DNA of 64,000 nucleotides from Escherichia phage SF: the sequence record MH359124; one strand, 5' to 3'. Below are positions 44,385-62,371 of this stretch, piece after piece. The translations under genes and the position numbers were made by a program. Position 1 is the stretch's first letter, and the number at the start of each line of letters is the position of its first letter. Below the pieces are notes generated by a model, which worked only from the letters and a program-made list of their open reading frames with translations, was not told the origin of the DNA and made no database searches.

Positions 44385-44615
44385 ATGTCCACTGAAACTA
44401 TTGAAAAACTGCAGTCTGAAATCGTAATTCTGAAATCTCGTATTCTTGATACACAAGATGCTGCCGCTCGTATTTCTGACGATTCTAAACTTCTTCAGAA
44501 TACCCTAGCCCAGATTGCTCAACTGGTCGGTATTACAAGTGAATCTGTTAAACTGGAAGACCTGGTAGAAGCAGTACGTGAACTTGTTAAAGCTGAAACC
44601 ACAGAAGAAGAATAA
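44385..44615 (+). CDS. 57A: gp57A tail fibre assembly chaperone
   Basis: 76-aa coiled-coil ORF immediately after gene 1. Confidence 0.85.
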
Positions 44616-45070
44616 TGAAATTTGAGGACTTTTCACAAGGCCTCTACGTCGCAGCTAAATTTTCGGAATTAACACTTGATGCGCTGGAAGACCTCCAGCG
44701 CAAATTAAGAATTCCTAATCCAGTACCACGTGAAAAGCTTCATTCAACAATTTGTTATTCGCGTGTAAACATACCATATACTACATCTAGTGGTAGTTAT
44801 TCTGTTGCCAAATCAGGACACCTTGAGGTATGGAAAACCGATGACGGTGCTGTACTGGTTTTAGTTCTTGATTCCGAATATCTTAGATGTCGTCATCAGT
44901 ACGCACGAGCTTTAGGTGCTACTCATGATTTCGACGACTACACTCCACATATAACGTTATCATATAACGTTGGCCAACTATCATTCAGTGGTGATGTAGC
45001 TATTCCGGTTATTCTCGACCGTGAATACAAAGAACCCTTAAAACTAGATTGGGCCGAAGATCTAAAATAA
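44615..45070 (+). CDS. 57B: gp57B (by recollection, T4 57B is the Acb1 anti-CBASS phosphodiesterase)
   Basis: 151-aa ORF coupled to 57A (ATGA overlap); size and synteny match T4 57B. Acb1 assignment is from memory of the literature, not sequence. Confidence 0.8.
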
Positions 45071-45082
45071 TTTTCAAAAACA

Positions 45083-45118
45083 GTTTACATAAGGATGATG
45101 GCGTGTTACTATCATCCT
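45083..45118 (+). promoter_or_regulatory. early promoter with stem-loop (PeSL-like) for the ipI-locus gene
   Basis: GTTTACA, then inverted repeat AGGATGAT...ATCATCCT enclosing TACTAT. Confidence 0.6.
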
Positions 45119-45146
45119 ATCAAATAAACAACCTCAAGGAAATAAA

Positions 45147-45458
45147 ATGAAAACCTATCAAGAGTTTATCGCTGAAGCTACTAAAGCCGATAAAAATTTT
45201 ATTATTAACACCACCGGTCCGTTAGATGATGAATACGCTAATGCTATTATTAAGTCAATTTCTAATCAAGGCGTTGAAGTAACAAATTTCGAATATAAGA
45301 AAAATGATACTTATATGATAATTAGTATCAAAAAAGGTTCAAAAGCCAAAATTAAATCCGCATTTGGTGTTATGCGAGTTGACCAAATCGATAACCACGA
45401 TTTTTCACAAACAGGGGCCAAACGCCAAAATACCATTTCTTCTAAAGGCATAAAATAA
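45147..45458 (+). CDS. internal protein (ipI locus) with capsid-targeting leader
   Basis: N-terminus MKTYQEFIAEA, the T4 internal-protein capsid targeting sequence; early promoter upstream; position adjacent to 57B. Confidence 0.8.
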   Translation: MKTYQEFIAEATKADKNFIINTTGPLDDEYANAIIKSISNQGVEVTNFEYKKNDTYMIISIKKGSKAKIKSAFGVMRVDQIDNHDFSQTGAKRQNTISSKGIK

Positions 45459-45494
45459 TTTACAACACGATAGGACTATGTTATAATAGTCCTA
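45459..45494 (+). promoter_or_regulatory. early promoter TTTACA-17-TATAAT embedded in a stem-loop (PeSL)
   Basis: aTTTACAacacgaTAGGACTAtgtTATAATAGTCCTAtc: -10 lies in the loop of an 8-bp inverted repeat. Confidence 0.7.
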
Positions 45495-45519
45495 TCAAAA
45501 CAACCAAATGGAACCTAAA

Positions 45520-45783
45520 ATGAAAACTTTCAACGAATTCATCTCAGAATCGTCTGGTGTGAAAATTAACAAAGCGGTCAATCAGGTTATTGCTGATATT
45601 CTTAATTTGTATAACATTGACTTAACTCCGCATATCACGCTTGGTAACAAACGAAACTTTTTCATATTTGACACATCCGAACTTGATGAAAATCAGTTCA
45701 ATAACATTCAACGTTTTGCGAATGATAAAGGTCTTCGACACGAGCCTGGCGGCTATAAAAAATACGCAATATATTTGAAATAA
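45520..45783 (+). CDS. internal-protein-like (CTS variant MKTFNEFISE)
   Basis: Start at ATG 45520; CTS-like N-terminus; PeSL-type promoter-stem-loop upstream. Confidence 0.65.
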   Translation: MKTFNEFISESSGVKINKAVNQVIADILNLYNIDLTPHITLGNKRNFFIFDTSELDENQFNNIQRFANDKGLRHEPGGYKKYAIYLK

Positions 45784-45852
45784 AGGTATACAAGCCTATA
45801 GGGATATGTTATAGTAGTCCTATCAAAACAAATGAGTAAATGGAGAAATAAA

Positions 45853-60281: not shown

Positions 60282-60496
60282 TGGCTTCTACTATTACCGG
60301 GTTATTAGACTTTCAAGAAAAGGTCAACAAAATTTGTAGTGAATACTTAAAGTATCTTGAAGAAGACCTTGAAGATTGTAAGGAAGAAGGCGAAGAAGAC
60401 TATGCTGACCAGCGTAGTCGCCAAATCGAAGAGATGAGGCATTTCGCCGATATGGTATCTAAAGAATCTTGGGCTTTAACTCCATTTTATCAATAA
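60281..60496 (+). CDS. hypothetical acidic protein
   Basis: 71-aa ORF, ATGA coupling. Confidence 0.55.
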   Translation: MASTITGLLDFQEKVNKICSEYLKYLEEDLEDCKEEGEEDYADQRSRQIEEMRHFADMVSKESWALTPFYQ

Positions 60497-60500
60497 AGTT

Positions 60501-60550
60501 GTTTACTTCTCCTCTAGATGTGTTACTATAGACCTGTCAACTAGAGGAGA
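60501..60550 (+). promoter_or_regulatory. early promoter for regB with inverted repeat CCTCTAG...CTAGAGG
   Basis: GTTTACttctCCTCTAGatgtgtTACTATagacctgtcaaCTAGAGGag. Confidence 0.65.
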
Positions 60551-60557
60551 AATCAAA

Positions 60558-61016
60558 ATGACTATCAATTCAGACGTTTTTATCCGCCGTAATAAACTCC
60601 GTCGAATCTTTGAAACGGAGTTCCGCAAAATAAATGCTGGTATAAAAGATGCTGCAAAGTCTCTTGGACTACCAGGCTTTCATATCAAGTATTCTCAACA
60701 TCTCTTAGATCGTGCTATCCAGAGAGAAATAGATGAGAATTACGTTTTTGAATTATTTCGTAAAGTAAAAAATCATGTTAAAGAAGTTGCAGAATTTTTA
60801 TCAATGCCTGCACGTCCAGATGTTGATGAAGATTTTGTCGAAGGTGTCGAATATCGCCCAGGCCGTTTAGAAATAACTGACGGAAATCTTTGGTTAGGAC
60901 TTACAGTTTGTCGCGAAAATCCGGCATTCAAAATGAAGACTCTCCAATGCAGAATGGCTATTATTAACAGTAAACGACTACCAGGAAAAGCTTCTAAAGC
61001 AGTGATTAAAATCTAG
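60558..61016 (+). CDS. regB: RegB site-specific endoribonuclease
   Basis: MTINSDVFIRRNKLRRIFETEFRKIN...HIKYSQHLLDRAIQREIDENYVFELF...GVEYRPGRLEITDGNLWLG...LQCRMAIINSKRLPGKASKAVIK matches T4 RegB; early promoter upstream. Confidence 0.93.
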   Translation: MTINSDVFIRRNKLRRIFETEFRKINAGIKDAAKSLGLPGFHIKYSQHLLDRAIQREIDENYVFELFRKVKNHVKEVAEFLSMPARPDVDEDFVEGVEYRPGRLEITDGNLWLGLTVCRENPAFKMKTLQCRMAIINSKRLPGKASKAVIKI

Positions 61017-61024
61017 AGGTAAAC

Positions 61025-61567
61025 ATGAGAAAAGCACTACTCGCTGGTCTATTTGCTCTTTCATTATCAGCACATAGCTCCGAGCATACTTTTAGTAATG
61101 TCCAACTCGATAACTTGAATTATGCTTATCAGTTTGGGGAACAGTTTTCTAAGGACGGAAAATTTAAAACGCATGAAAATATGCATAAGAAAGGACTTGG
61201 ATACATAATGGCCGCAATACTATGGCAGGAATCATCTGCCGGTATTAATCTTAAAGATAAGAAAGGTCACCATGCGTATGGAATGTTCCAAAATTATCTA
61301 CCAACAATGAAGGCAAGAATTAACCAGCTTGGTTATAATATGTCTGATGCCCAAATTAAGAAAATGCTATCTAAGCGGTCTAATTCAGCCAGATGGGCTT
61401 ATATCGAATTTTCTTATTGGTTAAATATACATAACGGGGATATAAGAAAAGCTATATCCTCATATAATGCGGGATGGAAGACAAGTGCTGGAAGTAAATA
61501 TGCTTCTGAAGTCCTAGAAAAGGCTAATTACCTTAAATCAAATAAACTACTGGAAATAAAAGAATGA
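61025..61567 (+). CDS. secreted lytic-transglycosylase-like protein (signal peptide plus SLT-type ES...GMFQ motif)
   Basis: N-terminal signal peptide MRKALLAGLFALSLSAHS; motif LWQESSAGINL...AYGMFQ; at the T4 vs.1 position. Confidence 0.65.
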   Translation: MRKALLAGLFALSLSAHSSEHTFSNVQLDNLNYAYQFGEQFSKDGKFKTHENMHKKGLGYIMAAILWQESSAGINLKDKKGHHAYGMFQNYLPTMKARINQLGYNMSDAQIKKMLSKRSNSARWAYIEFSYWLNIHNGDIRKAISSYNAGWKTSAGSKYASEVLEKANYLKSNKLLEIKE

Positions 61568-61911
61568 CCAAAATGTTGGCTTTAATAGTTGGCTTGGTTT
61601 CATTTAACACTCTTGCTAATACTACATATACTGATGTAACGGAGTATACAAACAGAACGGCGTCTGATTATTGTGGTAAAAGTCAAGAGTGTAAAGTAGA
61701 TTTTTCACAAAAATTGTTATATGCATATAAAGACGGAGAAAAAGATGGGGCGTCTAGTAGGTTCAAGGCGTCTACCTTAATTAAAAGATACTATAAAAAA
61801 TGGCAAATATTAGAATGCTCGGTGGCGGAACCTAAAGATAAGGCAGCATGCAATTCTATGGTGGACCGTCTAGTTGACTCTTATACTAGAGGACTTGCAG
61901 CAAGTGATTAA
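61564..61911 (+). CDS. 115-aa protein with hydrophobic N-terminus (size and position match T4 vs)
   Basis: Synteny (regB, vs.1, vs) and length 115 aa; no motif. Confidence 0.5.
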   Translation: MTKMLALIVGLVSFNTLANTTYTDVTEYTNRTASDYCGKSQECKVDFSQKLLYAYKDGEKDGASSRFKASTLIKRYYKKWQILECSVAEPKDKAACNSMVDRLVDSYTRGLAASD

Positions 61912-62371
61912 AAACTATATCAAGGGCGATATTGTCGCCCTGTTTTCTAAAGGTAATAATATCGCTCACGGGTGTAATTGTTTTCATACAATGGGCGCTG
62001 GTGTGGCAGGACAATTAGCAAAGGCTTATCCAAAAATTCTGGAAGCCGATAAACTTCAAACCGAATTCGGAGACGAGTCTAAACTCGGGACTTATTCGGT
62101 TTATGAAAAATATTTTAAGACACATAAAGCTTATTGCTTTAATCTTTATACACAGTTTGAGCCTGGACCTAATTTTGAGTACTCTGCTTTAATGAATTGT
62201 ATAATAGAATTAAATGAATTCGGAAAGAATAAGATAACAAAACCTGTAATTTATATGCCAAGAATTGGTGCAGGTATCGGTGGTGGAAACTGGGATGTCA
62301 TCGAAGAGATTTTAGATACGTATTCCACTAAACTAGAAATTGTGATTGTTGATTGGGAACCATTATTATGA
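61874..62371 (+). CDS. macro-domain-like protein (possible ADP-ribose-binding/processing fold)
   Basis: Gly-rich motifs GDIVALF...HGCNCFHTMGAGVAGQLAKAYP and MPRIGAGIGGGNWDVIEEIL; 165 aa. Start may be downstream; overlaps the upstream ORF by 38 nt. Confidence 0.55.
   Translation: MTLILEDLQQVIKNYIKGDIVALFSKGNNIAHGCNCFHTMGAGVAGQLAKAYPKILEADKLQTEFGDESKLGTYSVYEKYFKTHKAYCFNLYTQFEPGPNFEYSALMNCIIELNEFGKNKITKPVIYMPRIGAGIGGGNWDVIEEILDTYSTKLEIVIVDWEPLL

Follow-up and report, generated by a model that had tools for sequence, protein, structure and literature searches.

Escherichia phage SF very probably carries three intact anti-defence genes, independent of one another and belonging to the early-gene set of T4: acb1, acb2 and adfM, the last encoding a protein that would act on DNA. 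They lie in a 64,000-nucleotide stretch of its genome (sequence record MH359124), called the window here. An original prediction from the sequence alone had picked out three open reading frames (ORFs; 44615..45070, 60015..60281 and 61874..62371) as anti-defence candidates; all are on the + strand and end where it placed them. Orthology, intactness, fold and conservation of key residues are established for the three genes, while what Acb1 and Acb2 do biochemically, and the tk.4 phenotype on DarTG2 hosts, would carry over from the literature on their orthologues. The genes are:

44615..45070, + strand: acb1 (gene 57B), 151 amino acids, predicted 2H phosphodiesterase acting against the cyclic-oligonucleotide-based antiphage signaling system (CBASS); from Pfam, the Protein Data Bank (PDB) and identity to T4 and RB69
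60015..60281, + strand: acb2 (gene vs.4), 88 amino acids, predicted cyclic-dinucleotide sponge; from Pfam, PDB and identity to T4 and RB69
61904..62371, + strand: adfM (gene tk.4), 155 amino acids from a GTG start, macrodomain, anti-DarTG2 factor by orthology

Between 44 and 64 kb, the DNA is 96–98% identical to that of phages RB69, vB_VIPECOMC06, phi25-307, PHB12 and TH58; on nucleotide identity the phage is RB69-like, genus Mosigvirus, family Straboviridae (the T4 family). Genes are arranged as on the T4 and RB69 maps: gene 1, 57A, 57B, internal-protein genes, tRNA genes, e.8 to e.2, nudE, e, denV, vs.8 to vs.3, regB, vs.1, vs, and tk.4 to tk, all on the + strand. From vs.6 onwards (vs.6, vs.5, vs.4, the vs.3-position ORF, regB, vs.1, vs, tk.4, tk.3 and on to tk) the order is again that of both phages. 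None of the three products is truncated relative to its RB69 or T4 orthologues: 57B has 151 residues (151/152 in the orthologues), Vs.4 has 88 (88) and Tk.4 has 155 (154/155).

The protein encoded at 44615..45070 matches the whole of the Pfam Acb1 model PF23474 (positions 1–144 of 144; E 6.5e-59, 198.2 bits, cut-off 27) and the Acb1 structure from Erwinia phage FBB1 (PDB 7T26, E 9.2e-59). It is 86% identical to T4 gp57B and 99.3% identical to RB69 gp57B, with conservative substitutions as the only differences. Compared with T4 gp57B and FBB1 Acb1 (7T26/7T27), it has the same length to within a residue, the same slot after 57A and an intact catalytic tetrad; its ATG overlaps the 57A stop codon (ATAATGA). 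The tetrad, located by alignment to T4 gp57B, is formed by two HxT motifs:

44741..44749, + strand: first catalytic HxT of Acb1, H43-S-T45, corresponding to T4 H44/T46
44948..44956, + strand: second catalytic HxT of Acb1, H112-I-T114, corresponding to T4 H113/T115

In T4 Acb1 the tetrad is H44, T46, H113 and T115, and the H44A/H113A mutant is inactive; the enzyme cleaves 3'3'-cGAMP, cUA or cAAA and protects from CBASS (PMC9117128). Lysates of T4 lacking acb1 lost cyclic-nucleotide cleavage, and the deletion phage was plated on CBASS-carrying hosts (Hobbs et al., PMC9117128). Judging by these alignments, the window 57B is an intact Acb1, its cleavage activity being transferred on the 86% identity to T4; it would act as a metal-independent 2H phosphodiesterase that destroys CBASS alarm molecules. 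That 57B is instead a generic member of the 2H family, an RNA ligase or LigT-like cyclic phosphodiesterase with no anti-CBASS role, is extremely improbable. The label of PHROG 755, 'RNA ligase', and a weak Pfam match to 2_5_RNA_ligase2 (14.9 bits) agree with such a protein, but that match is under its own cut-off of 27, while the Acb1 model scores 198 bits.

The protein encoded at 60015..60281 matches the Pfam Acb2/Tad1 hairpin model PF24729 (E 6.5e-18, 65.1 bits, cut-off 27) and, over residues 3–88, the crystal structure of T4 Vs.4 (PDB 7UQ2, E 7.3e-30). Identity is 64% to T4 Vs.4 and 97.7% to RB69 Vs.4. The gene and vs.5 overlap by 11 nt, and the vs.3-position ORF comes directly after vs.4, with regB further downstream as in T4. 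Size (88 amino acids), the slot between vs.5 and vs.3, and near-identical terminal segments are the points of likeness to T4 Vs.4 (7UQ2) and to the Acb2 of PaMx33. Two parts of the protein bear on its ligands:

60039..60086, + strand: dinucleotide-pocket residues of Acb2, Y9 (60039..60041) and K24 (60084..60086), from a motif match to PaMx33
60126..60221, + strand: variable hairpin tip of Acb2, amino acids 38–69, including Q61 and Q68, from the alignment to T4

Y9 and K24 are 15 residues apart, as are Y11 and K26 of PaMx33 Acb2 (the primer-encoded sequence in PMC10312549), and the IKGY and N-x-[IV]-K motifs around them match as well. These motifs are kept in 29 of 30 aligned related phage sequences, the exception being poorly aligned (L050). 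The PaMx33 pocket needs both residues (Y11A/K26A data, PMC10312549). F82, which when changed to Cys in T4 Acb2 lowers binding (PMC12657218), is also kept. By these comparisons the window Vs.4 is an intact Acb2 orthologue with the key dinucleotide residues conserved, and its sponge activity would be that of T4 and PaMx33 Acb2, whose hexamers sequester nucleotides (PMC10312549, PMC12657218). Such a small helical-hairpin protein would, as a hexamer, hold cyclic dinucleotides between the N-terminal segments of two protomers, with the Tyr stacking on the ligand and the Lys forming a salt bridge.

The hairpin tip has diverged from T4 Vs.4, with 7 of 33 positions identical (21%) against 32 of 37 and 18 of 19 in the flanks, and is of the RB69 type. 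Among 30 aligned T4-like homologues (loci L006-L050), the tip is hypervariable in length and sequence, and both ligand-binding ends are nearly invariant. The diverged middle of the window protein was considered as a possible peculiarity and rejected, as the tip is hypervariable across the family and the allele is that of RB69. Behind this hypervariability may lie weak constraint, or selection either for escape from host sponge sensors or for retuning of the second pocket. Q61 and Q68 occupy the cyclic triadenylate (cA3) pocket positions, which are R67/T74 in PaMx33 and D61/T68 in T4; the PaMx33 trinucleotide residues are not kept. R67 and T74 are needed for cA3 binding, and T4 Acb2, which keeps one of the two, does not bind cA3 (PMC10312549). 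Together these points predict a sponge of dinucleotides only, like T4 Acb2, and not of cA3. The R67/T74 pocket marks a subset of Acb2 proteins and not the whole family, so membership is unaffected. T4 acb2 triggers Panoptes, which senses sponging of its decoy 2'3'-c-di-AMP (PMC12657218); the window Acb2 would, as in T4, be a liability on Panoptes hosts. The original prediction had named the first ORF as T4 57B/Acb1 and the second, from its T4 vs.4 slot relative to regB, as the Vs.4/Acb2 sponge; similarity and synteny now bear out both assignments.

The third ORF had been predicted at 61874..62371. Its end stands and its start moves, leaving a short upstream segment outside the gene:

61874..61903, + strand: in-frame extension from a TTG, probably untranslated as part of the protein, from the T4 TAG and the annotated starts

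The TTG at 61874 is a start in the mechanical sense only, being the first start codon after a stop. The GTG at 61904 has an ATG as its T4 counterpart, with an in-frame TAG directly before that ATG. An AGGA Shine-Dalgarno sequence lies 9–10 nt upstream of that start codon in both T4 and the window phage, and T4, RB69 and vB_VIPECOMC06 are all annotated as starting at the codon equivalent to 61904. The real start is taken as 61904 because of these agreements, and the gene almost certainly runs from that GTG, not from the TTG, to 62371. It sits between vs and tk.3, as in T4 and RB69, overlapping the end of vs by 8 nt, and its own TGA overlaps the tk.3 ATG. The protein is identical to T4 Tk.4, which is AdfM, at 130 of 155 positions (84%) without gaps, and is 97% identical to RB69 Tk.4. 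Locus, start position and active-site residues, including NLYTQ, are the same as in T4; residue 127 in the Gly-rich loop is K in T4 and G in the window protein, and there is otherwise nothing of note between them.

The protein matches the Pfam Macro model PF01661 (28.1 bits, cut-off 22). An AlphaFold2 model from a 68-homologue alignment has a predicted local distance difference test (pLDDT) score of 95.7 and a predicted template modelling (pTM) score of 0.91. Probabilities from hhalign are 98.6% to DarG-type macrodomains and 98.3% to TARG1, and there is a clear gap from the model to MacroD-type and viral macrodomains (<=13.7) and to the Macro domain of the Thoeris protein ThsA (10.9), with which Foldseek agrees. 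As modelled, Tk.4 is a macrodomain of the TARG1/DarG/Poa1p/BT1257 group (ALC1-like class) with the ADP-ribose-binding loops present. The macro fold expected in the original prediction was thus found, and the two Gly-rich macro-like motifs on which it was based are both in the translation, as the first and last of these active-site elements:

61967..62014, + strand: macrodomain motif 1, HGCNCFHTMGAGVAGQ (H22-Q37), containing N25, from hhalign
62141..62155, + strand: NLYTQ strand end, with Q84 at 62153..62155, from hhalign and the AlphaFold2 model
62258..62293, + strand: macrodomain motif 2, PRIGAGIGGGNW (P119-W130), the phosphate-binding Gly-rich loop, from a HMMER alignment

N25 is equivalent to N22 of DarG, N23 of PhiKZ AdfM and N27 of SCO6735 from Streptomyces coelicolor (for the roles of this Asn, see PMC13309987 and PMC9411070). 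In hhalign, with the TARG1 sequence confirmed against PDB, LYTQ falls on FPTK of DarG and LITK of TARG1, and Q84 falls in the column of the catalytic Lys (DarG K80, TARG1 K84); in the AlphaFold2 model, strand 75–84 terminates at Q84. The active-site Asn of the DarG type (N22 in Thermus aquaticus, N23 in PhiKZ) is therefore kept, while its catalytic Lys (FPTK; K80 in T. aquaticus, K78 in PhiKZ) is replaced by Q84. Because of this replacement Tk.4 is not filed as DarG-type, though the two may share a substrate. A direct HMMER alignment matches the Gly-rich loop to that of SCO6735 (5E3B), the SCO6735 sequence HLPRIGCGLAGGTW standing against YMPRIGAGIGGGNW, so that G122 and G124 correspond to G126 and G128 of SCO6735; TARG1 D125 aligns with G126 of Tk.4 (hhalign). 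This direct alignment, made with a partial PDB query, covered the C-terminal Gly-rich loop only and not the Gln region. Q84 is equated with Gln85 of SCO6735 because it falls on TARG1 K84 and DarG K80, which the SCO6735 paper equates with Gln85. Among the 68 homologues (38–97% identical), H22, C26, N80, Y82, Q84, P119, I121, G122 and G124 are invariant, and N25 is kept in >=90%. HMMER pairwise alignments to BT1257 and Poa1p around NLYTQ look gap-shifted and were discarded for residue equivalence.

The features of SCO6735 (Gln at the catalytic-Lys position, the conserved Asn, the PRIGxG Gly-rich loop) are all present in Tk.4. Both proteins are stand-alone macrodomains that have Gln in place of the DarG/TARG1 Lys, the His and Asn of H-x-x-N, and a PRIGxGxxGGxW loop. 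The similarity is distant (E 6.6e-5), however: K34 is replaced by Ala on motif spacing, K89 is apparently absent, and SCO6735 is a cellular protein. SCO6735 removes ADP-ribose linked to thymidine on DNA and gives protection against DarT; its Q85A and Q85E mutants have no activity, and N27S has almost none (PMC9411070). Hydrolysis of thymidine-linked ADP-ribose on single-stranded DNA has been shown for SCO6735, DarG and TARG1 (PMC9411070).

There is genetic evidence for a function of Tk.4 in T4. In a 2025 preprint, tk.4 was the one T4 gene that came out as significantly required on a host expressing DarTG2, and its authors named it adfM, for anti-DarT factor Macrodomain; a clean deletion sensitises T4 to DarTG2 (bioRxiv 10.1101/2025.11.20.689424). 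Enzymatic removal of ADP-ribose from DNA was those authors' inference and was not assayed (bioRxiv 10.1101/2025.11.20.689424). T4 and T2 that have lost the anti-DarTG1 NADAR gene adfN still resist DarTG2 (PMC11825919), which fits tk.4 as the anti-DarTG2 gene. The phenotype points to removal of ADP-ribose from DNA, and by analogy the best-supported and most likely role of Tk.4 is to remove it from thymidine in DNA rather than to act on Thoeris or CBASS signals. The toxin DarT2 attaches ADP-ribose to N3 of thymidine in single-stranded DNA, and AdfM would shield the phage DNA during replication by hydrolysing this modification; direct binding and blocking of DarT2 may add to the protection. With Gln in place of the catalytic Lys, its chemistry would be expected to resemble the water-mediated, Gln-dependent mechanism of SCO6735. 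From these parallels we infer that Tk.4-type proteins are Gln-type hydrolases of thymidine-linked ADP-ribose, possibly aided by direct inhibition of DarT2. The original prediction had cast the macro protein as one that binds or hydrolyses an ADP-ribose-derived signal; its fold and anti-defence role hold, but its target changes, as the T4 gene is a DarTG2 hit. Since the phenotype is DarTG2-specific, the plating on CBASS and Thoeris hosts proposed at the time would probably miss the effect of tk.4.

Another phage protein named AdfM, from PhiKZ-like jumbo phages, has been described as a macrodomain with FPTK and K78 (PMC13309987). The DarG2 macrodomains (T. aquaticus, 5M31/5M3E; Mycobacterium tuberculosis, 5M3I) and PhiKZ gp104, the AdfM of chimalliviruses, carry FPTK with K80 or K78 where Tk.4 has YTQ, and Tk.4 is without the C-terminal DarT-binding domain of DarG. 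PhiKZ gp104 matches DarG at E 1e-24, while its sole BLASTP alignment to the window protein is 23 residues long, around the conserved Asn. These differences place the T4-type and PhiKZ-type AdfM, as judged from their alignments, in separate macrodomain lineages, each with its own residue at the catalytic position. Two other relatives have no link to phage defence: yeast Poa1p (6LFQ-6LFU), an ADP-ribose-1''-phosphate phosphatase, and Bacteroides BT1257 (2FG1/2AFC), which has no known function. Whether Tk.4-type AdfM forms a separate Gln-based anti-DarT2 lineage (like SCO6735, BT1257 and Poa1p), recruited independently of the Lys-bearing, DarG-derived AdfM of PhiKZ, is evenly balanced on present evidence.

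Several points weigh against Tk.4 as a thymidine-ADP-ribose hydrolase, and against the functional side of the three-gene reading in general. The DarTG2 role comes from one preprint and from genetics only, and de-ADP-ribosylation assays of Tk.4-type proteins have yet to be reported. Tk.4 does not have the Lys on which catalysis by DarG and TARG1 depends, and activity on DNA is not guaranteed by its residues. Ala is found where SCO6735 has the DNA-positioning K34 (from motif spacing, not a direct alignment), and the match of Q84 to Gln85 runs by transitivity through DarG and TARG1. The closest solved relatives by sequence are BT1257 and the phosphatase Poa1p, not DarG. For all three proteins of this phage, function would be that of the orthologues, and the ligand spectrum of Acb2 is suggested by a few residues in a hypervariable segment.

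Part of this evidence is also what would be expected if Tk.4 neutralised DarT2 mainly by binding the toxin, as an antitoxin mimic, rather than by catalysis. AdfA and AdfB act through binding, and catalytically dead SCO6735 Q85A, DarG K80A and TARG1 K84A still inhibit DarT in vitro, SCO6735 most strongly (PMC9411070); the missing Lys would be no obstacle to interaction-inhibition of the kind seen with DarG and SCO6735. Yet H22, Q84, G122 and G124 are invariant, and N25 nearly so, in homologues as little as 38% identical. This argues for a conserved catalytic pocket, as a toxin-specific binding surface is not expected to hold these active-site residues fixed, and a mainly binding role is unlikely. 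The absent Lys has also been compatible with an ADP-ribose-1''-phosphate phosphatase like Poa1p, or another small-molecule ADP-ribose hydrolase in nucleotide metabolism, with the DarTG2 phenotype indirect. PHROG 335 and the RefSeq annotations say 'phosphatase', Tk.4 is nearer to Poa1p (E 1.4e-8) than to DarG (E 9e-4) by sequence, and an H-x-C-N-C motif is common to Tk.4 and Poa1p (IHSCNC and AHGCNC). The label, however, is an inherited annotation and not a test, tk.4 was the single DarTG2-specific hit in T4 and its deletion sensitises the phage, and SCO6735 is a Gln-type, ALC1-like macrodomain able to cleave thymidine-linked ADP-ribose on DNA; a phosphatase is accordingly quite improbable. Macrodomains bind ADP-ribose derivatives, and a second substrate of Tk.4 is compatible with the present evidence, as would be needed for a sponge or hydrolase of an immune signal of Thoeris-type systems, such as glycocyclic ADP-ribose (gcADPR) or histidine-linked ADP-ribose (His-ADPR). 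The known anti-Thoeris sponges, Tad1 and Tad2, have folds unrelated to the macrodomain, and the only reported genetic phenotype of the T4 orthologue is DarTG2-specific, which makes this role very improbable. Removal of ADP-ribose from thymidine in DNA stays the preferred function of Tk.4.

Each of the three genes abuts or overlaps its own upstream neighbour, and co-transcription with that neighbour is therefore likely from the gene arrangement. A promoter and terminator scan of the 44–64 kb stretch was uninformative, with 75 promoter-like sites against 66.9 ± 9.3 in shuffles; none of the strongest promoter matches listed falls in the short intervals upstream of the three genes.

Among the other genes of the region, six small ORFs open with the T4 internal-protein leader MK[TS][YF]xEF[ILV]xE, which is found nowhere else in the window:

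45147..45458, 45520..45783, 48194..48658, 56667..56948, 57512..57814 and 58086..58415, + strand: ORFs with the internal-protein leader

Four of the six are internal head or virion proteins according to PHROG. In T4 the same region contains only ipI, ipII and ipIII. The leader we take, by analogy with T4 IPI-III, to be a capsid-targeting sequence cut by the prohead protease, and the six products are candidate anti-defence proteins of the injected kind, like T4 IPI*. At the ipI locus, the order of the two ORFs is reversed relative to vB_VIPECOMC06. There are only two tRNA genes (47289..47445, + strand), Met-CAU and Arg-UCU, as in RB69, where T4 has eight, and this locus is without a segB-like homing endonuclease, unlike T4 and vB_VIPECOMC06.

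Three tandem small ORFs (51832..52137, 52147..52419 and 52429..52626, + strand; 101, 90 and 65 amino acids) share an extreme C-terminal motif, G-(A/G)-W-[VI]-x-S-S-x-x-C. They correspond to RB69ORF139c/138c (one ORF in the window and in vB_VIPECOMC06), RB69ORF137c and RB69ORF136c (PHROG 899, 4882), and have no T4 counterpart at the locus. Between e.3 and e.2 are two further + strand ORFs not in T4: 52954..53910 (318 amino acids; DUF7277 and DUF7275, E 1e-27 and 5e-79; RB69ORF134c) and 54289..54975 (228 amino acids; PHROG 1843, no Pfam match; RB69ORF132c). Both may be cargo of a hyperplastic region, with an accessory or anti-defence role. The Vs.6 homologue (59439..59801, + strand), directly upstream of vs.5 and vs.4, matches Pfam Gly_radical (E 2e-18) with the motif RVSGYAV and is, from this match, a phage copy of the autonomous glycyl radical cofactor GrcA. 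A homologue of the Nudix hydrolase NudE is encoded at 55689..56147 (+ strand; Pfam NUDIX, E 5e-16), and the T4 enzyme is annotated for ADP-ribose, NADH, FAD and Ap_nA. A NudE that works downstream of the macrodomain, clearing free ADP-ribose, is speculative.

Acb1, Acb2 and Tk.4/AdfM have already been characterised in T4, and the anatomy described here is within known families. Real anti-defence genes were recognisable from sequence alone, and little new biology is added by this. All three were named 57B, vs.4 and tk.4 in the RB69 annotation of 2003, while many current records call the products 'RNA ligase' (Acb1), 'hypothetical protein' (Acb2) and 'phosphatase' (Tk.4); the misleading product names can be replaced by Acb1, Acb2 and AdfM. 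What may go beyond the literature is that the Tk.4 family has Gln for Lys in its active site and stands apart from PhiKZ-type AdfM. A description of this family as DarG-like assumes the Lys that it does not have; its resemblance to Gln-type SCO6735 bears on how T-even phages erase DarT2 damage. PHROG 335 is widespread, with >2,700 phage records matched (tblastn). If the Gln-based lineage is a separate one, macrodomain proteins that erase ADP-ribosylation of thymidine would have entered phages on two or more occasions, with two catalytic solutions, and PHROG 335, now labelled 'phosphatase', would be a large reservoir of DNA de-ADP-ribosylases.

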